A stretch of 64,000 nucleotides of DNA from Tubulanus polymorphus (Eukaryota; Animalia; Nemertea), in assembly GCF_964204645.1 (NCBI RefSeq), contig NC_134025.1, positions 25,090,299 to 25,154,298 on the forward strand, read 5' to 3'. Shown here in pieces: positions 26,122 through 63,996 of this stretch (position 1 is its first letter; the number at the start of each line of letters is the position of its first letter). The notes under the pieces are model-generated. The model was given only the letters and a program-made list of their open reading frames with translations. It had not been told where the DNA came from and searched no databases. The position numbers were made by a program, and so were the translations under genes.

Positions 26122-29100
26122 TTAAATATCGGTATCGAGATCAAACATGATCGAATTGGAGAATTCGATCGGGCATTCCATCTTTTCCACTGGTGTTGGT
26201 TCATCCCAGCTCAACATGGTTTCCACTTCGCTCGTTTTAATACGTTCCGCAGTATTATTAACTTGCTCGGTGTTGTCAGCTGACGGCTCATCGACGTTAG
26301 ACTTGTCATCGCTGTCTACTTCATCACTCGGTTTATCATTCGGGGCGGTCAAGTTGTTATTGTTATTACACGTGGCCTTTTTTCGTTTCGATTTCGATCG
26401 CTTGTTCGGTTTCTTGCCGGTATTCTTCGCGTTGTTCTCCTCTTCGAATTTACTCGTTTCGTCCGCGTCGACCATGCTCTCGTCGACGCGACGGCTTTCG
26501 TCCATTTTCGTCGTCGCGCAATTTTCGACCTTCGTCGATAACTCGTCGACGGCCGCCGGTTTGCCCGGGACCGGACTCGCCTCATGGATCGTATCGAAAG
26601 AACACGCGCTGTTTATATCGCTCGTCCGTTCGTCCGGTAAAAACGTGTCGTCTTTCTCCGAATCGCTGGCTGCCTGATTCGCGTTGTTATCGTCGCCGTG
26701 GTCGTCGCTACTGTACTCGGAGCTGCTGTGGCGGCGTTGGCGACCTGAGATTTTCGCTTCGCGTTTTCGCATGCGGCGTCGTTTACTTTTCAGCGTCGTT
26801 TTCATCGAATTGACGGCGGCGTTCGGCTTGAAACGAGTCGTGTCGATGTGATCGTTAAACGACACCGATTTGCGTATACCGCACTCGTCGGACTCGTTAC
26901 CGGTGCGCGGACTGTCCGACGAATACGACGGCATACTCTGCGAACGCACGTATTTATTTCCCTGAGCGTTCGCTTCGTCGCTCGATTCCGACATGCTTAA
27001 ACTGCGCGGTTTTAATATTCCGTGCAAAGACGGAGACTTTTTATCATGGATCACTTGAATATCGGGCGACTTTATTGGTGATTCTGGATCATCTAGCACA
27101 TCGTCATCAGACTGACTCTGAAAAGTAAAATCATTCGTTATCGAACATTATCTGTTTATCTCATTCCCTCAAGCCACAAAATTCAGGGAACCAATAAATT
27201 CTGCCAACAAGGATTCCAGAAACCAGTGGCCAATTGATCAGTAAAGGCTTTAAGCCTTATTTGGTTCAATAGCTTATCTTACAACTTAATCCAGGCTAAT
27301 AATGACTAGTCATGAATTAAGACCATATTTGGAATGACACATCAGGTACATCAGGACTGTACAACTTGGGCACTGCACCACAACTAATCATTGACATGCT
27401 ATACCAAGCATTCCTCCCAAAAACATGGCTTCAAAATCTACGAACCCCGATGCGAAAAGTAAGCTTCTTTTCGTTCATTTTCGTGACGTGAAGGTGCGGT
27501 AACGTCACATTATCTTTCGTCGACTGGGAATGTTGTTTCGCATCGGCCTCTAGTTCATCCAGACTTTTACTGAGGCTGGCGTCAGTGAGGAAGAGTTTCT
27601 CCTGGAAAATTTAACAATGTAACAATCAATGTTGGTGAGAGTGGGGACATATGAGATCTAGACAATACAGCTAGTCTATAGATTAGATACCTGCTGATGA
27701 AAGGTAACTAATTAAGAGAACTAGTGTTCAAGCTGTATCATCATCCTTAATCATTAAAGATGGATTCATTTCCTAGGTAACATTGATACCTCGAAAGATG
27801 ATCATAGATAATATCGCAGCTGCGAATAGAAATACAGCTGTTCGCGAAATAGATTCTCGTGTATAAGAGAAGAACTAGGCGTTTTACACAAAAAAATAAA
27901 AGGCGTAATGTAACATTCATATAGATACAAGTTCTAGTAAAAATACATGTACTGGTAAACGCCCTCATAGAGCAACATAAACCTGTAATCAATATACAGT
28001 AATAATGTAACTGAGCTACTAGATATTTTCATAAAGCCTATCAACCTCTTATCAAGGGTACTAACGTAAGATATGGATATATTTGTAATGTCAATTTGCA
28101 GGGACAGGTCACTATCGCACCAAATTCAAACACCTTATTTATCCCTGCATAATGGGAACAGTTGTTCGCATATTAAGAAATCTTGTCCCAATACCCCGAT
28201 TAATAACTCTTAAATTTAAATTTTAAGATCTAAACTTCAGCGCTGCTCACCTTATTTACTGGTGCCATACTTATAATATTTTGCACTCTTCGAAAAAACT
28301 AGATTATTTCCAGTAGGTTCTCAATGTTTCTATCTAGATTCTAGAGTGTCGGTATTGAAACCGCTCTCGTGTCTGATGTAATTCTGATCGATAATGTCAT
28401 CAGCTTATATTTTCAACGTGTTGTATGTATATAGATTCGAACGATGGGCAACAGGTTTCAGTAATGCCCGGCGTCGTTCACCGGCACTAACGGCTGCGAT
28501 AAGAGCAAATTCTTTTGAAAATGATAAATGAATCTTACTTCTTTTTCGACGAATCAGTTCCTTACATTTTATCCACTTCAGTTTATATCCATAACCAACA
28601 CAACAATTAAACCCACCCTCACTACCTATCTGAACCAATAGATCAAAAGTTTTTGAACAGTTTTAACTCTTCTTAGTGATTAGAACGATCTAAAAACTTG
28701 CGTCAACAGTGAATCTTAACCTTGGCCTACTTACCCACATTGGAAATAATAAGTTTCTCCAAAATATCACCACAATCTCAACAAATAAAGCCCTGATAAA
28801 CCTGAACTGATATCGAGTCATGGACCAAACTTTTGCTGATGATAAAGCCATGCTAAAAACTTATCAAGAGTTCACATATACGCTAACACTTCTAACGCTC
28901 GAGTGTTTACTACATTGAATACTAGCATACTGTCATCTTTGTCCTATCCATTATTTAGCTCAACTCCGGCAATGTTGTCATTCATAGCTCCTGACTGGTT
29001 TTACGACGATAAAAGAAATCTAACTCGCTATTTCAAAACGTCTAAACCACTCGAAAATTCAACTACAAAAGGACGGACTTTTAAGCAAAAATATAGATAT

Positions 29101-31701
29101 CTTTGTTTTCAGCTCTCTGCTTCGTTTCTACTGTGTGCAGTTCGCAGATGCTGAGTAGACAGCAGCTACGCCTATGAAATCTAGATTTCTGTGAGGAGCG
29201 CGAGCGTGCGCAGGTAGTGTAGCAAGCTGTACTACAATAACAACAGACCAGGTAGATGAGAGAGAGAACTGATTCTAACTACGTATTGATCATCCAATCA
29301 GCCGAACACACATCATAATAGTTCTTGACAACTGCATTTATAATATCCTAGTAACAGAATATTGCTATACGACGATACAGATCTAAAATACTGATATTTT
29401 CTAAATTTATATCGATAGATGTGCGTCTGGTTTGATGCAGGTTGTGAATAGACTTTTACATAATCGATTGATAACTTCCCTGTTGTGCCTAGATATTGTG
29501 TCAGATGACACTGAAAAAAAAATACATCCGGCTTATGACAGCTAAGCAAAATCTTATGAAAGATTTCTAGATAAATTGATATTAAATGGCGAAATAGAAA
29601 ATTAAGAATTCTGAATTCTTTTTTCATCACACAAATATATTTAAGTAAAAATTTGCAGCTCCCTTGTTTGAAAAAGTAAAATGCACTATTTCAATCGTTG
29701 ATTTTCCAACTTAACTGATTTTCACCCACTTTCGCTGACTACACTAAACAATTATTGCCCTAAAGTTGCTAATCTAAAGTTAGTTGAAGATAACCGGCAA
29801 ATAAATGGCAGATAAATGCATTGAAGTTTTAGTTATCACAATGTCAACTATCCACTGGTTAACTCTAACCAACTTTTGAGCAACTGGTACCCTTATCTTT
29901 TACAAATCTACCAGATCTTCAGACTCAATGAAAGATTTTTCACGATACATTTTTAATAAGCCTATAGGTCATAGGATATTAAGATCAATTTTCCTACCTC
30001 GAGTTTGTCAAGATTCGAGCCAACTTCGTACGAGTTCCACGTGTTGCGACAGTTTCTATCTTTCAACAGCAACACGGCCACGTTCTCATTTGACAGATCG
30101 ACGCTGCATTGATCGGGAACGACGCGACAATTCTCGGCGAACCTCGCGCAGAAGCTGTAATAGACGGGGAAACCCCCGGAACCGATCGAAACAAATTTGA
30201 TCGTTATCGTCGAGCGTTTTTCCGTTTGATCGAACGTTTTCGTCACCGAATCGCGATCGACGTTTTTCACGTGTAAAACATAACTGACCGTTTGTAAATC
30301 CTGATTACAATCGAAACCGGGAAACGAGTAACGGATAACGGCGGTACTAGAAACATCAGCATCGCCCCAGATATCTTTACTGGTCGCAGGAGCATGAGAT
30401 TCGATCGTCGTTAAATTTGATTTCTCCGCGACAATTTCGTTCTCAGTCGTACCGTTAATACGACTAACAGGAGCAGGGGATGGTTCCGAAACTTGTTCCG
30501 AAGAACTTAGAACTTCGATAAGAGGTGCCGGGACAGGTTGATCTTGTACAATCGCTTCATCACTGTTTGTTTCGGCAGTTGAAGAAGATGAAAGGTCATG
30601 GTTCGAAAGTGGAATCACGGGTAAAGTGACCGCTAGTCGTTTCTTTGACTTGTCGAATTTAGCGGTGCCGCTGTTCTCATCGATCGCGTACGGAAGTTTC
30701 AAATCGAGCTTGTACCAAGCGGGCGATTCGATCTCCAGGACGAGACGTTTCTCGAAAATATCCAAGTCGACGCCGGCCGCAGATTTCAACAGCGGAAGTT
30801 CGATGTAAACGACGAGTTCTTTCGGACGAATATCGCGTTTACCGAGGGGTTCGTTACAAAACTCGTGCATTTCGATACCCGACCGATGAACGATGGAATA
30901 TTTCGGAGTGATAGCACCGCCATTTTCTTTCGATGTTTCGGTATTTCCTTTAATTTTCTCTGTCTCTTCGCGTTTTGCCGCTTTTTCAGCGGTTGTCAAC
31001 TCGTCGTAAGGATACGGAAAAAGATTGTCCTTTTTCGCGGTAGGTTCTGGATCAGCGTTCACTTCACCGTTGGCCGATCTGCTGCGTATAACAGTTGCCT
31101 GCGGAGTACCTTTATACTTCATTTTAGGAGATTTTACATTTTTCGGGTCGAGTTTGATACCGAACTGTCGTTGGATGCCTTCGATCGCGATGTCCTCGCA
31201 CATTTTTTTGAAACTTGCGTTCGATTCCGCCATACGCATCACGTCCGGGTTGAACACGATATCGATGACTTGACATTTCTGATTCGAAGAATCGAGGTCT
31301 TCGCGGGGCGGTGCGAATGAATGAGGGACGGACCACTGCAGTCCGTAGTTTCCTTTCGGGTCTCGTTGTTTCGAAGCGGTCGGTTTATCGATGTCTTTAT
31401 TTCTACAAATATTGATGAAAATCTTCTGAGTTCCGTCGTTACATTTCAACACGTAACAAGGATCCGGGTGTATGAACTTGACGTCCATGCCCCGGTCTCT
31501 TTCCATTTCGGCAATTTCTTCTTCATATTTACGCTTGTTGACAGGGTCGGATATTTCTTCCGCGTATTCGGCAAAAAGCTTACGAAACTCTTCGTTTTTG
31601 AAAGCGTCAGTTAGTTTTTGAATTTCACCCGATGACAAGTCGAGTTTCTCTAAATTACTGAACGGTTTTTCGTTGTTGGGCATGCTTTGCGTTGACGCCA
31701 T
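26122..31701 (-). CDS. DNAAF2: Protein kintoun / dynein axonemal assembly factor 2 (PIH1 plus CS domains), about 951 aa
   Basis: Three phase-0 exons: 29998-31701, 27446-27601, 26122-27117. Hallmarks are FRKLFAEYAEEISDP.NKRKYEEEI..MERDRG.DVKFIHP, KIFINIC, WSVPHS..PPREDLD, KYKG, LDLKLPY.IDE..G.AKFDKSK..L.VTLPV, then GILKPRS.S.SES, RKSVSFN and the terminal FSNSIMFDLD. Confidence 0.93.
28735..28851 (-). other. Candidate coding first exon nested in DNAAF2 intron 1
   Basis: A short ORF MALSSAKVWSMTRYQFRFIRALFVEIVVIFWRNLLFPMW ends at a perfect phase-0 donor TGG|GTAAGT. Promoter-like CT/CG-rich sequence lies upstream at about 29130-29290. Confidence 0.3.
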
Positions 31702-31910
31702 GTCGCTGTTTATCTCTGGTATTTATTATTTTGACTAGAACTAGAACATTCTCCAGACTCGGCGAGATATCACTTCCGGGTTTACGTGGTGTAATAAAGC
31801 TACTTGAATTTGCATTTGGTAAATTGAACACTGATTGCCGAATCGACGAAAATTGCGCACTTTCGGCCGCGATTGAACGATATTTTCTTTCGTTTGAAAA
31901 GGTCAGTGCC
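31702..31910. promoter_or_regulatory. DNAAF2 promoter region, possibly bidirectional
   Basis: An ETS-type motif ACTTCCGG lies at 31772-31779, just upstream of the ATG. A plus-strand donor AAG|GTCAGT at 31901/31902 suggests a divergent non-coding first exon. Confidence 0.35.
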
Positions 31911-56580: not shown

Positions 56581-56895
56581 TGGTGGCTGATTCGGGTCAT
56601 ACTAAAAAAATTTTCTGTACGGCTAAAGCAACGATAACAAATTTTTCACATTGGCCCATTTTTTGGTTTTCTCGCGCGAGAATTCAAAACATTTTGGTTT
56701 GAAAAATTTTTCTGACTGGCTAGATGCTGGATAAAAATTTTTTACAATGGCCCATTTTTTGTTTTCTCGCGCGAGAAAACCAAACTTTTTGAATTCTCGC
56801 GCGCGAAAACCAAAAAACCGGCCAATGTGGACATCTTTTTATCGTCGCTTTAGCCGTACAGAAAATTCTTTTAGTATGGCCCGAATCAGCCACCA
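56581..56895. mobile_element. Long fold-back element (about 120-bp inverted arms) upstream of OSCP1
   Basis: TGGTGGCTGATTCGGGTCATACTAAAAAAATTTTCTGTACGGCTAAAGC... (56581 to about 56700) pairs with ...GCTTTAGCCGTACAGAAAATTCTTTTAGTATGGCCCGAATCAGCCACCA (about 56777-56895). There is an internal duplicate of TGGCCCATTTTTTG(G)TTTTCTCGCGCGAGAA. Confidence 0.85.
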
Positions 56896-57258: not shown

Positions 57259-60200
57259 ATGTCTTTGAAAACGCTTCCACTTCTTTTCATCAATCTCGGT
57301 GGTGAGATGATGTACATTTTGGATCAAAGGCTGCGAGCTCAAAATATTCCCGGTGAAAAGGCCACAAGAGGTGATCATTCGTATTTTTTAATGAAAATAG
57401 ATCTTTTTTGACAGGAGGCCTTGATGGAATGGAAGGAAGTTCCCTTTTGACTTGATTAGCTAAAAAAAAAGTTTAAAAACTTAAGTTGGTGGTTTTAGCT
57501 ATTAAATTCAATGAGAACCATGAAAAGGAATCACCCATTGACAATTACTAAATGCTGACATCAGATACTGCAATAATGTAAAATTACAGATAACAGGAAT
57601 GAGAAATCTGAAAAGCTCAGCCTGATCTGACTTGGGAAGAAACAGGCATCTGAACTTCAATGTAAAATTTGTGGTTCTTTATACATGCCCTTTTATATTA
57701 CCAATTTCAGTAATGCATGATATTGTTAGTACCATGTTCAGTAAGCGTTTTATGGAAGAACTATTTAAACCTCAAGAACTTTACTCGAAGAAGGCATTGA
57801 GAACAGTATTTGACAGACTTGCTCATGCATCTATAATGCGTCTTAATTCTGCCAGTATGGACAAGGTCTGCATTTCAAAAACTCGCTAAACTTATATTCG
57901 CTTGAAAATTCCAGTTTAATCACTGAATTTCAATTTGCAGTTATATGACCTGATGACAATGGCTTTCAAATATCAAGTTTCGTTGTGTCTGCAACCGAAA
58001 GAGATTTTGCTCGTAACTTTGAACCACATGGATTCGATTCGTGCTTTTGTGAATGATTCGCACAACATTCGACAACAAGTTGAAAATGTGTACAGGCTTC
58101 TTATTCAGGTAATAAACCGTCGAAATAGCTACCTGATATTAGAAAAATGCGTGCTAGGGTCTTCAAGGTGATCCATGAGATGTTCAAGATTGGATTTAAT
58201 GAAATGTGTGACCATAAACAAAATTTCAAACCGTCCATGAATGAATTAGACCTATGTAAAGAACAAAAATAATCTTCGGTCACGTTTAGTCTTAACCCAA
58301 AACCGAGTTTTATAAGGACCACCGGGTGCTTAGGTTAACCAGACCAGACTAATAGACGTTTTTGTTTTTTATAATAGAATTATGCTTCCCTCTCGTCCGG
58401 TGATTTCCAGCTTATTCGACAGACTCTTCTTAGCTTCTTCCAAGATATGCATATTCGGGTAAGCAAGTTGAAAATAAAGCGGCAAGGCAATTCTGTGCAT
58501 GATCAATTCCATTGGAGACTTCATGTTACTAATTATCTTTTAGGTGTCTATTTTCTTAAAAGATAAAGTTCAAAATGCAAATGGACGTTTTGTTTTACCT
58601 ACTAGCGGTTTAGTGCCACCGGGCACAGAAATTCCTGGTACCATTAGGTATGCATAGCTGTTTATATCCTAAGGCTAAAAAATGATACCTGGTTTCTCCT
58701 AATTGGCCAGATCATTTTATAAATCCCAATAAGAATTTGTAATCAGTTCATTTCTATAGCTGCCAGGTCTGTTATTGTTAGCTTGATCACAATTTTTAAC
58801 ATCTGCAGAGTAGATAGGCCAGCCAGGTCAACTTTTAAGCTCAGCAGAAATGAGAAACAAGGTTTCACTTTTTAGCTTAAAGCTACATGTATCTATAGAG
58901 AATCATAGAGCACATTTGTTTGTCTGTTGGAACCAGTTCCTCATACTTTCAGGAAAATGATTACAGTAACTTCTTATCGAATTAAGAAAAACCAAATAAA
59001 TGAAGAAATGAAATTAACCTTGGAGTTTGATATTTTTGTGACACTGAGTTACATTTTTAAACTTGCGATTTTCAGATATTTTGTTTCTCTCTCCTAGGTT
59101 ATTCAATGATAATGGCGATGTCTGTACAGTGCCATTTTCATCTGGTGGAAACTATGTGAACTCATCGAGCGAAGGCTCGTATGACATCAGCGGAGATCGA
59201 GTCACAAAATTAGGAACAAACATGTATGAACTGAATACATAAGAGACGATTCATTTTGCATAATAAATTAATGGTCCCTAAATATATCAAATCAAATATG
59301 CTGAAACAGCAACATGAAATATTAATGGCGTTGGATACGCGATGTCAATGTCATTGAAGCTGTGTGAATATTTTATCCCCAAATGCCAAATTGCATTCAT
59401 TATGTAGTGAGAGCATATAACATATCAACTTATTGAATTCATGGCAGGAAGTATGTTTTCAGGTACAATGTTGTGAGACAAGTTGAAACGATGCTTTCTG
59501 GGCCTGCCAATACCAAAGTTGTGTCACAAATCTCGGATATGGTATGTTAGTTATTTTGTAGTAAAAGTTTAGCTAAAGAACACGATCATTTTGATCTGAG
59601 ATACGAAGTGTATACTGATTAGATTCAAAATACATGTAGATGATAATTCTTGATCCCTTGATTTGATTTCTCAAATGATCGGAATTTCATGCGTTCACTC
59701 TACTATATGTGTATTAACTCTTGAGGTGAAAATTTGATTTTCTATTCATAAAGGAAGCAAACACTCCAAATCCTCTTGCCAAGGCCCAGCTAGATCTATT
59801 GTCTCATTTAATCGGTGGTGGAGACAAACGTAGTAGTCGAACAGAATTCCGTCTGAATCTTTTTAGTACAGATGAAGAAGAAGAGTACGTGTAATGAATC
59901 AATTTTAGATCAAATCATTGAAAATCATCATCGGGAATAAGTCCTACAAGTTAATAGTCAAAATGATGTAAATCTGAGTTCGTCTTCAAAACGATTATCT
60001 CAATATTAACCTTTATTTCAGAAATGCAGTTTCATTCGCTGCGTCGGCGTCACCTACTGTAGAAGAAGCATCCGGAGTGATACGGATCAACGCTCAAATG
60101 GTCAGCAATTCTTTTAATTCAATAATGCACTTGATTGTTGTATCTGTAGTTATGTAGTTACACGGTATTGTATTGTAAAGCATGTTGCTGCCCTGAAGAC

Positions 60201-62065: not shown

Positions 62066-63466
62066 TTATTTCAGCATATCTTTCAAGTACTGGCGGGCGA
62101 CTAATCTCTGTTTATGAAACAAATTCATGACGTCTTCAGCAAACTTAGATGGCATCTGATCATATTCGGTGTCGACCTCTGTCAGCCTTTCGACGGCCGC
62201 TTCTTTATCGAATTTCTGACAGACCTCATTATTGTAAACGTCCATCGCTTTTCCCTTCAATCCCTTGCGTTTACACAACTCAAAAGCTAATCTGGACTCG
62301 TCTATCTGACCGACACACTCGAACGCGTTGTGCTTTCCTAAACCCAGCATTTGGCGATAGTACACTTGATTTTCAGGCAGGTCCAGCAGGTTTTCCTTGA
62401 ATATCGAGTCGACCAGATTTGTCGGCAGGTATGCCATATATTCTAGCCAAACGTAGGCGCACTTTGCGCATCTTTTGCACCATGGTTTCACCACGTTACA
62501 CGAATGAGTATAAGGCAGGTGAACAGCACCAAACGAATTCAGCATAGTAAATATCAATACATCATTAATTGGTTTGAGAATACTGAAATATTTGAAGTTA
62601 GAAATCAGGTTATCTCTAATGTAAGAATCAAACATCATCTCTTCTTCCTGACTCTTGCAATATTGATGATTAATGGGTAGTCCATTCTTCTCCCAAATCA
62701 AATTCGGGTGTTCGGCGCTCTTTTCGTGGCCCAAGTTCATGTAGCGATATCGATATTGAAGAATGACTGGCAGCGATCCAAACACCGCACGAAGCGTTTC
62801 ATCTTCTTGCAAGGTTTTTATACCCACATCATTCATGTGGACAATCGGACAATCTAAGAAGTCATCGTACATCGATATTTGATGATGTTTGCGCGATTTG
62901 GTGCAATTATTTACTTGATCGCGAATAAGTCGAAGTTGTAAAGGTGAAGTGCCATAAATAGTGCCGCTATAACCAAGCGTGCCGTACTCGACTCCAACTT
63001 TTTCTAAAATGGTAGTGCACATCAGACTATCTTTACCTCCACCGTTCAAAGACAGCATCTCGGGCCCATCAGGTGGTGACATCTCAACGGGCACAGGAGA
63101 GCAACCACTTGGTTTATTCAAAAATGTTGGGCCTTTATAATCAGGGAGATCATTCTCGTACAACCATTGGGAATACGCACCCATGAAATGTTTTAGCCAC
63201 ATTTTCTCGAATGCTACCGTATGGTAGTGTTCATAACAACCCAGGTCGATTAACTTCGGTTTTAAACTTTGCAGTTTGCTCATCTCAAACGCAGCGATAT
63301 GGAAATACACCCTATCCATGTATTCTTTTCCGTACGTATCTTCCAGTTCGTAGAAATTGACATCGTGGTACCACAGTGATGTTGTAAATTGTAGATCACC
63401 AACACCATACACCATACTAATTTGGTGTTTGGCGCGGTTGTAACACTTCAACAAAACAACGGCCAT
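62066..63466 (-). CDS. murL: MurL-like protein (UDP-MurNAc-L-Ala-L-Glu epimerase family; PP-loop ATP-dependent adenylating fold), 466 aa, intronless CDS
   Basis: Ordered motifs NGGGKDS (PP-loop), GHEKSA, INHQYCKS, FSILKP, HSCN, WCKRCAKC and AFECVG correspond to the MurL motifs GGGKDS, SNERSA, NHQ(W/Y)SKS, FSLLRP, SCN, WCGxCPKC and PFECVG (recalled from memory). The acceptor ATATTTCAG ends 4 nt before the ATG. AATAAA lies on the minus strand at about 61874-61879. Confidence 0.75.
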   Translation of the reverse strand: MAVVLLKCYNRAKHQISMVYGVGDLQFTTSLWYHDVNFYELEDTYGKEYMDRVYFHIAAFEMSKLQSLKPKLIDLGCYEHYHTVAFEKMWLKHFMGAYSQWLYENDLPDYKGPTFLNKPSGCSPVPVEMSPPDGPEMLSLNGGGKDSLMCTTILEKVGVEYGTLGYSGTIYGTSPLQLRLIRDQVNNCTKSRKHHQISMYDDFLDCPIVHMNDVGIKTLQEDETLRAVFGSLPVILQYRYRYMNLGHEKSAEHPNLIWEKNGLPINHQYCKSQEEEMMFDSYIRDNLISNFKYFSILKPINDVLIFTMLNSFGAVHLPYTHSCNVVKPWCKRCAKCAYVWLEYMAYLPTNLVDSIFKENLLDLPENQVYYRQMLGLGKHNAFECVGQIDESRLAFELCKRKGLKGKAMDVYNNEVCQKFDKEAAVERLTEVDTEYDQMPSKFAEDVMNLFHKQRLVARQYLKDMLK

Positions 63467-63908
63467 GATACTGAAATATAAAATCCAGATTTCATGAATT
63501 CATGTTCTGTGATATATACCTTTGACGATAAAAACGGTATTCACACCAACATATATAATTGTACATATTGTAGTGTCAACCCTCACTATCTGCCACATCG
63601 GCCTTCTGCCAAATATGTTGAGTTGCCAGGTTTGGAAAATTTAGTTCATCGTACGTCTGTTAATTATATGGATCGTACTGCCCAATATGCGTCAAGCCTC
63701 CCAAATCCATATGGATTGATTGACATATCAAATGAAATCCATCTGTAAATTACTTGTATTCATTCATGTCCTTATTACATGAAATAACACACATATACAA
63801 CGCATGTATAGAGCATAGCCTAACGATCCAAGTAAACCCATTACGGCTAGAAATGACAAGACCATTTATCGGCCATCTTGAATCTGGTTGACCCACTTGC
63901 GTTTTTTA

Positions 63909-63996
63909 TACATCCAGGGATGAAAAGTTACCTCAACGACTTGAATACAATGGAAAGGTTAGGGTTTCGGGAGGTAACCTTTCGTTCCTGGATATA
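63909..63996. mobile_element. Small inverted-repeat MITE
   Basis: TACATCCAGGGATGAAAAGTTACCTC and GAGGTAACCTTTCGTTCCTGGATATA are 26-nt arms with about 4 mismatches. Confidence 0.65.

Follow-up and report, generated by a model that had tools for sequence, protein, structure and literature searches.

The closest described relative of the gene considered here is MurL, an enzyme that uses one ATP per reaction, releases AMP and works one way, from L to D, by a proposed route of alpha-carboxylate adenylation, epimerisation and hydrolysis (PMC8788868). A review calls MurL the first epimerase with ATP as co-substrate. A further point of comparison is the QueC family (PF06508; QueC, Cap9 and QatC), and a passage of PMC13329287 gives an SGGxDS-like loop and a C-x(n)-CxxCxxC zinc motif as hallmarks of QueC. 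In a 64,000-nt stretch of the genome of the ribbon worm Tubulanus polymorphus (NC_134025.1, positions 25,090,299 to 25,154,298 of the forward strand), the whole of which is called the window, a gene at 62066..63466 on the minus strand encodes a MurL-family protein of 466 amino acids. Its sequence places this window protein outside MurL proper, in a separate branch of the MurL family. This branch is linked to ergothioneine genes, not to murD.

The open reading frame (ORF) runs from 63466 to 62066 as a single coding exon, complete from ATG to stop, in a window without any N. As an earlier note on this DNA had stated, it is intact over 466 codons and contains seven motifs, each once and in the order GGGKDS (residue 142), HEKSA (247), NHQYCKS (266), FSILKP (294), SCN (322), WCKRCAKC (329) and FECVG (382). 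Homologs numbered 560 at E<=1e-3, full-length bacterial matches were found at E about 1e-150, and the bacterial proteins nearest to it share 45-50% identity with it from end to end; the ORF is, to judge from such similarity, far beyond chance. The domains PF26299 (MurL_N) and PF26298 (MurL_epimerase_C) were present in the precomputed annotation of the identical protein and of all 120 listed matches, and Atlas matched both at a score of 0.96. A local Pfam scan found no family for the ORF, probably because that collection is older than PF26298 and PF26299.

Together with a match to the MurL equivalog model NF041275 (E 1.5e-25), these domains confirm the homology to MurL that the earlier note had proposed. 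The match is confined to residues 242-446 and reaches 89.6 bits against a cut-off of 700; P0002 and P0003 score 91 and 97. MurL-type proteins were taken from five loci of a 300-genome class sample, two of them above the NF041275 cut-off, with murD beside 4/5; identity of the window protein to them is 26-31%, in the core only. The likeness to MurL consists of full-length homology, the PP-loop, E-x-SA, NHQ-x-x-K, S-x-L-x-P, the four-Cys motif and F-x-C-x-G. Indeed, 40 columns, among them H267, Q268, K271, C384 and E390, are near-invariant in both MurL and the egt-linked branch, and 36 of them are retained in the window protein. In contrast, at the 15 diagnostic columns that separate MurL from egt-linked proteins, the window protein has the egt state nine times, the MurL state never and neither state six times. 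It also keeps 64 of the 85 columns conserved in egt-linked proteins, E223 included, where MurL has His. Furthermore, MurL is partnered with an adjacent or fused MurD2, whereas the window protein has no murD partner and occurs in an animal, which makes no peptidoglycan. Genomes G001 and G005 each hold both a MurL-type gene and a gene of the egt-linked branch. A MurL-like substrate is hence not supported, given the diagnostic columns and the linkage of this other branch to ergothioneine genes.

This linkage was observed in two samples of bacterial relatives. The genome sample comprised the best 80 of 310 loci, with six-frame counts within 8 kb. It contained egtD at 24/80 loci, egtB at 20/80, an OpuAC-permease importer at 15/80 and any of these three at 28/80, as well as a radical SAM gene at 9/80 and murD at 0/80. 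With one egtD placed at random per genome, about 0.17 egtD loci would be expected by chance against the 24 observed, although the Poisson figure for this excess overstates the case because the loci are related; the egtD-linked loci cover at least five phyla, with differing gene orders. Clustering of neighbouring ORFs combined with Pfam retrieved DinB/FGE-sulfatase proteins, Methyltransf_33, OpuAC-permease fusions with ABC ATPases, and a radical SAM protein. All EgtD proteins tested (7/7) scored above the TIGR03438 cut-off, and 11/17 EgtB-like proteins above that of TIGR03440, the other six scoring best as OvoA-like. Loci L002 and L003 instead carry a molybdopterin oxidoreductase-desulfurase fusion, which is the architecture of MES in a passage of PMC9516567, and at L061, L065, L073 and L078 the importer occurs without egtB or egtD in the stretch covered. 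The second sample consisted of partly redundant metagenome loci seeded with P0110. Here, egt genes were found at 20/45 branch loci (16/22 among loci of 6 kb or more) and murD at 0/45. The 13 most distant metagenome loci had murD in 11/13 and egt genes in 0/13; one of these 13, L145, is a branch fragment by motif. In addition, EgtD above cut-off was present in 38/50 carrier genomes versus 47/151 controls from the class of G004, a single class unmatched for phylum and genome size, one of the 47 resting on the unpublished G089. Ergothioneine pathways (EgtD with type I or OvoA-like EgtB, MES, and EgtU-type importers) are thus recurrent neighbours of the bacterial relatives, whereas the worm window carries none of their genes.

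Other contexts of the branch were ectB-X-ectC (L037), DAO-X-PhyH (L044 and L057), a B12-binding gene (three loci), sbnAB (L011) and a BCCT carrier (L016). This variety suggests that the branch acts on more than one small amino-acid derivative. At the cyanobacterial loci L044 and L057:6402-12936, the MurL-like gene is directly preceded by a DAO/glycine-oxidase-family gene and followed by genes for PhyH dioxygenases, and in P0189 a DAO-family oxidase is fused to a MurL-like C-terminal part; members beside or fused to such oxidases were counted in favour of epimerase chemistry. Locus L011:9626-14483 contains egtB, egtD and the MurL-like gene, followed by a sulfotransferase-like gene, sbnA, sbnB and a second pyridoxal phosphate (PLP) enzyme. 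A radical SAM protein of ~500 amino acids and a P-type ATPase recur beside the MurL-like gene and egtD at L002:2241-11957, L006:5998-13330 and L058:4723-12323, in Thiotrichaceae and others, with a weak B12-binding match in L058; a further tailoring of ergothioneine by these neighbours is possible. Locus L112:1-4412 carries two tandem MurL-like genes, a SAM methyltransferase gene and egtD. In the 291-row alignment, D222-E223 occurs outside the worm proteins only in the product of the second copy. This copy groups with Thiotrichaceae, indicating that the D222 shared with the worm proteins is convergent.

The function that we favour, held tentatively and with less than even confidence, is that of a cytosolic ATP-dependent epimerase inverting ergothioneine, hercynine or a related thiohistidine to its D-form. 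The 40 columns common to MurL and the egt-linked branch favour a shared chemistry. ATP would be converted to AMP and PPi via an acyl-adenylate of the alpha-carboxylate, as proposed for MurL, after which the alpha-proton of the activated betaine would be removed and returned on the other face, with H267, C384 and E248 as likely catalysts. An alpha-trimethylammonium group eases removal of the alpha-proton from an acyl-adenylate, which makes a betaine plausible as substrate. Glu223, present in the egt-linked branch and the worm protein where MurL has His, would suit a cationic substrate. In bacteria, the substrate would be hercynine or ergothioneine rather than the intermediate of EgtB, as the gene is found with EgtB of type I, with OvoA-like EgtB and also with the unrelated MES route, and as four loci carry the importer alone. 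The worm enzymes would act, with an altered pocket, on a dietary or endogenous relative of the bacterial substrate, candidates being ergothioneine, hercynine (from which ergothioneine is made) or a thiohistidine with fewer methyl groups, for example an ovothiol. The loss of Trp269 and the acids gained at 221-222 could reflect a less-methylated amine such as ovothiol, and ovothiol is reported from marine invertebrates in a passage of PMC10903977. As to purpose, one may speculate that the D-form would escape L-specific degrading enzymes and transporters, the cell thereby keeping its antioxidant. Hydropathy analysis of the four worm proteins found neither a signal-peptide-like nor a membrane stretch. 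The lack of a signal-peptide-like stretch supports a cytosolic enzyme and leaves little support for the secreted neuropeptides, toxins and extracellular wall fragments named as targets in the earlier note; it applies to the known ORF, to which an upstream exon might add an N-terminal extension. From the same set of suggestions, the small-metabolite option is the one that the evidence favours. A wider picture, in which many bacteria possess an undescribed ATP-driven epimerase that makes a private, degradation-proof D-ergothioneine or D-hercynine with its own importer, and in which the worm captured its gene, multiplied it to at least four copies and adjusted the pocket, must be considered rather doubtful.

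The predicted fold is that of a QueC/Cap9 ATP-pyrophosphatase with a PP-loop and a four-Cys zinc motif. An AlphaFold model built with a 40-row alignment had a predicted local distance difference test (pLDDT) of 93 and a predicted template modelling score (pTM) of 0.91. Residues about 135-350 of the model aligned with Cap9 (Z 13.3, root-mean-square deviation (rmsd) 2.5, 176 aligned residues), the model aligned with QueC at Z 13.2 (rmsd 3.9, 190 aligned), and the next rows followed at 9.5; Foldseek ranked QatC, QueC and Cap9 at the top. Best structural matches in another PP-loop family had been named in the earlier note as a finding that would refute its reading. This condition is touched in part; no MurL structure was among the matches, however, and PP-loop and cysteine motifs of the same kind are present in MurL-type proteins. 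The likeness to the QueC family extends over the predicted fold of residues about 135-350, the PP-loop and the zinc motif. In contrast, identity is 13-15%, the window protein has no PF06508 match, it possesses an extra N-terminal domain and a C-terminal helical extension with C384, the QueC motifs YxQxHxxE, VPxRN and YPDC are not evident by eye, and deazaguanine genes are absent among the recurrent neighbours of the bacterial relatives. Searches of the PDB gave nothing significant with the single sequence, except for weak alpha-amylase matches, and no match at E<=0.001 with a profile, except for weak matches to the PP-loop protein TtuA.

All features of the coding region lie on the minus strand. 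The N-terminal domain (about residues 1-130, the MurL_N region; 63077..63466), searched alone, gave no clear structural relative (best VIA Z 6.1) and no Foldseek match at E<=0.001. The PP-loop GGGKDS (residues 142-147; 63026..63043) is equivalent to SGGxDS of QueC, and with the predicted QueC-type zinc site C323-x6-C330-xx-C333-xx-C336 (62459..62500) it corresponds to both QueC hallmarks. A predicted specificity loop, EDETL (residues 221-225; 62792..62806), whose role in the pocket is suggested by the alignment, stands where egt-linked bacteria have AAETP. HEKSA (residues 247-251; 62714..62728) has E248, S250 and A251 in common with MurL, and NHQYCKS (residues 266-272; 62651..62671) has N266, H267, Q268 and K271 in common with it, with Tyr269 in a place where both bacterial groups conserve Trp. 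FECVG (residues 382-386; 62309..62323) contains C384, a candidate catalytic Cys that is conserved in MurL and the egt-linked branch and that falls, as does E390, beyond the stretch aligned to QueC and Cap9.

The closest matches of the window protein are three paralogs of the same species, all named 'MurL-like' automatically in RefSeq. Paralog P0121 shares a 90% cluster with it, and the two others are 68% and 52% identical to it, on records of 16 and 14 Mb. The placement of the paralogs on records of 32, 16 and 14 Mb argues against contamination. The gene is thus an intact member of a small ribbon-worm family with four paralogous proteins in one clade. The annotated invertebrate homologs of which the earlier note had been unsure do exist, as automatic RefSeq labels in Tubulanus and as a UniRef label in the bdelloid rotifer Adineta ricciae. 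Sequencing reads came from four runs of one study. In run X1, which looks genomic, one contig runs without a mismatch from the 5' part of the ORF into the sequence upstream of it, which likewise argues against contamination. Another X1 contig enters the 3' end of the ORF by only 26 nt. Several differing X1 contigs are stacked inside the ORF, which fits several close copies, contig depth not being a copy number. A jump from 63500 back to 62126 within one X1 contig may be an artefact of assembly or reflect an incomplete tandem copy at another site. Run X3, judged RNA-like by its GT-AG joins, contains a 2105-nt contig that spans the complete ORF, shows 90 differences over 1408 nt, departs from the window sequence at 63469 and continues with 212 unrelated nt. 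The 40 differences listed fall in 35 codons, of which 34 agree with P0121 and 21 are synonymous. Hence, the closest paralog, P0121, is transcribed, and its transcript is likely spliced at the equivalent acceptor. The window copy has a likely splice acceptor at 63471..63490 on the minus strand, a pyrimidine-rich tract with a terminal AG that stands 4 nt upstream of the ATG. The tract is similar to the acceptors of OSCP1 and implies an upstream exon, which was not located within the window.

Of 375 rows, 33 were dropped as near-duplicates and 52 as fragments, as too long or as unmatched; the rest, cut back to the part that matched the profile, were the source of phylogenetic trees with 290, 44 and 30 rows. 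The four worm proteins formed one clade (100/100 in the careful tree). In all five trees this clade fell on the side without murD, and the long branch between the MurL and egt groups, with about 1.5 substitutions per site to either side of the root, was fully supported (100/100). None of the five trees fixed the donor lineage of the worm genes, and a metagenome scan for the context of the P0110 group found no locus with the loop motif of that group. There were 2397 representatives at E<=0.001; the genome loci carry bacterial titles only, in a prokaryote-only collection. With a four-paralog profile, the score fell from 900 to 602 bits beyond the worm proteins, and no other named animal ortholog except that of Adineta was found among the best 120 of 565 matches, a search that covered proteins of 256-832 amino acids, most of its matches being unnamed. 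On account of this distribution, the worm gene family was likely acquired once from bacteria, in line with the horizontal acquisition suggested in the earlier note. The Adineta ricciae proteins (P0112/P0122), named from an animal assembly, belong to the same bacterial branch. Unlike the worm proteins, however, the Adineta homolog retains the AAETP loop, and it groups with a Sericytochromatia bacterium (100/100), to whose protein it is 67% identical. The approximately unbiased (AU) test rejects its grouping with the worm genes (p=8e-5), and it is located on contigs of 3-6 kb, so that it would represent a separate transfer or a contaminant. A diatom protein (P0246) is a distant eukaryotic member, and a fungus and an amoeba ortholog are mentioned in a passage of PMC5808125, indicating that distant members of the family are scattered in eukaryotes. 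In a more distant MurL-like clade, P0249, P0254 and P0272 are fused to a flavin-dependent oxidoreductase (best NCBIfam match the MSMEG_0569 family, below cut-off).

Several observations weigh against a thiohistidine epimerase of bacterial origin. Within 8 kb, 52/80 genome loci have no egt gene, and of the 49 loci whose two flanks each reach at least 5 kb, 19 have an egt gene and 30 have none. The importers belong to the betaine family; one of them matches EgtUC as well as it matches any other protein, and the other scores best with ProX. The window protein is altered at 21 of the 85 egt-conserved columns, including R102L, A221E and A222D; where the egt-linked core has R102, the AAETP loop and W269, it carries L102, EDETL and Y269. 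Positions retained in both bacterial groups (V149, P225, W269 and P381) are likewise changed in it. These losses suggest that its substrate may have shifted or its activity weakened. The bacterial sister of the worm clade varies between the P0110 group, a cyanobacterial group and an egt-linked acidobacterial gene, none of them starred, and a basal position of the worm clade with the murD-linked outgroup is not rejected by the AU test (p=0.129). Finally, no full-length contig of the exact window copy was seen in run X3, which is not evidence of silence. Locus L037:6475-10319, from a cyanobacterium-like genome, contains ectB, the MurL-like gene and ectC in a row, and its product may be an ectoine analogue or stereoisomer. 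The MurL-like gene there occupies the place of ectA, as would fit a ligase, and EctA over cut-off is absent from the genome, although a putative GNAT-like ORF after ectC (no NCBIfam match at 1e-15) could replace EctA. Such a ligase would share the origin and substrate class proposed above, but its acyl-adenylate would react with an amine, in the manner of QueC, Cap9 and QatC, to give an amide or conjugate of ergothioneine or hercynine; the amine could be ammonia, a polyamine, a diamino acid or the N-terminus of a protein. This ligase is a lesser possibility, to which the nearest solved folds (Cap9, QueC and QatC) lend weight, as do the passage through an amide in the QueC reaction (per a passage of PMC13329287), sbnA/sbnB downstream in L011 and a carboxynorspermidine-synthase-like gene upstream in L068. 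However, full-length homology and the 40 common columns point to MurL rather than to QueC, and neighbour clustering revealed no recurrent amine-making gene family among the egt-linked loci.

Compared with the epimerase and the ligase, a shift of the worm enzymes to an unrelated substrate after transfer, such as a cytosolic peptide C-terminus (in line with the peptide epimerase of the earlier note), N-acyl amino acids or another betaine or alkaloid, seems unlikely. It would account for the long stem of the worm clade (0.5 substitutions per site), for the concerted changes at predicted pocket positions and for the paralogs diverging most around residues 161-170 and 209-220, and an N-acylated C-terminal residue is a known MurL substrate. 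Yet the window protein keeps most egt-specific columns (64/85, with E223) and has the MurL state at 0/15 diagnostic columns, A222D occurs as well in the tandem bacterial paralog within the egtD cluster of L112, and secreted neuropeptides and toxins are unlikely substrates for proteins that lack a signal peptide. It is more unlikely still that, within a functional family, the window copy merely duplicates the expressed P0121 and is recent, silent or in decay. The sole full-length contig in the one RNA-like run does match the paralog, with 90 differences in 1408 nt from the window copy, and paralog similarity ends within a few bases of the ORF ends. Nevertheless, the 466 codons are intact, the core motifs are all kept, the acceptor-like site is retained and 21 of the 35 codon changes examined are synonymous; moreover, one assembled run is insufficient to show silence, since close copies can collapse in assembly. 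A true MurL or a contaminant is highly improbable. The MurL Pfam domains and the RefSeq label would speak for the former, as would 15/50 bacterial carriers without MurI (glutamate racemase) over cut-off, a MurL-type gene or a match like D-amino-acid transaminase (Dat) above 200 bits, these being incomplete metagenome-assembled genomes (MAGs), one of which has a MurI-like match below cut-off. Among the 50 carriers, however, MurI is present in 25, a MurL-type gene in two and a Dat-like gene above 200 bits but below cut-off in eight; the NF041275 score is far below its cut-off (89.6 vs 700), and murD is beside none of the branch loci in either sample (0/80 and 0/45). Contamination is contradicted by the paralogs on records of 32, 16 and 14 Mb, by the contig across the 5' edge and by base composition. 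Indeed, the GC content and third-position GC (GC3) of the ORF, 0.42 and 0.47, are in the range of six neighbouring ORFs (GC 0.42-0.51, GC3 0.44-0.61).

The name 'MurL-like' is already in RefSeq by automatic transfer, and no description of the branch was found in the literature searched. No paper was found on an animal MurL-like gene or on a link between MurL and ergothioneine, most subscription journals being outside the search, nor on D-ergothioneine with an epimerase, on a gene cluster of ergothioneine or EgtD with QueC, or on ovothiol or OvoA in Nemertea. Passages of the ergothioneine reviews PMC13547098 and PMC10903977 contain neither the string 'epimer' nor a MurL-like gene, and those of the MES paper PMC9516567 contain neither an ATP-dependent epimerase nor a MurL-like gene. 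Databases spread the MurL name to every relative, including the ribbon-worm proteins, while the gene neighbourhoods point to a large branch of the family with a different job, tied to ergothioneine. Ergothioneine is a much-studied antioxidant, which animals obtain with their food, and the egt link gives a testable route to a new derivative or stereoisomer of it. In addition, the family documents a likely transfer from bacteria to an animal, a ribbon worm, in which the gene was retained, came to lie behind an intron and multiplied. If the proposed function were true, this would be an animal with its own enzymes inverting thiohistidine antioxidants.

The genes flanking the ORF are animal genes, so that it is encoded in an animal genome, as the earlier note had assumed. 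The ORF lies tail to tail with a spliced OSCP1 gene, which is identified by a Pfam match (exon at 57935-58105) and whose splicing is visible in run X3 as nine GT-AG joins. The remaining long ORFs include a PIH1-domain gene, an SK channel gene, a SOCS-box gene and Ig domains. When the window was searched by tblastn with egt-cluster proteins and two MurD domains, nothing further turned up; of the claim in the earlier note that neither murD2 nor other mur genes flank the ORF, the murD part thus holds. The PIH1 plus PIH1_CS gene, with a low-complexity exon downstream, is located at 26122-31722 (minus strand) and is presumably DNAAF2/kintoun. A 315-nt element at 56581-56895, with 120-nt inverted arms that are 88% complementary and with very high contig depth in run X1, is likely a miniature inverted-repeat transposable element (MITE) within an intron of OSCP1. 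Further high-depth repeats occur near 58700-58870 and 63900-63965.

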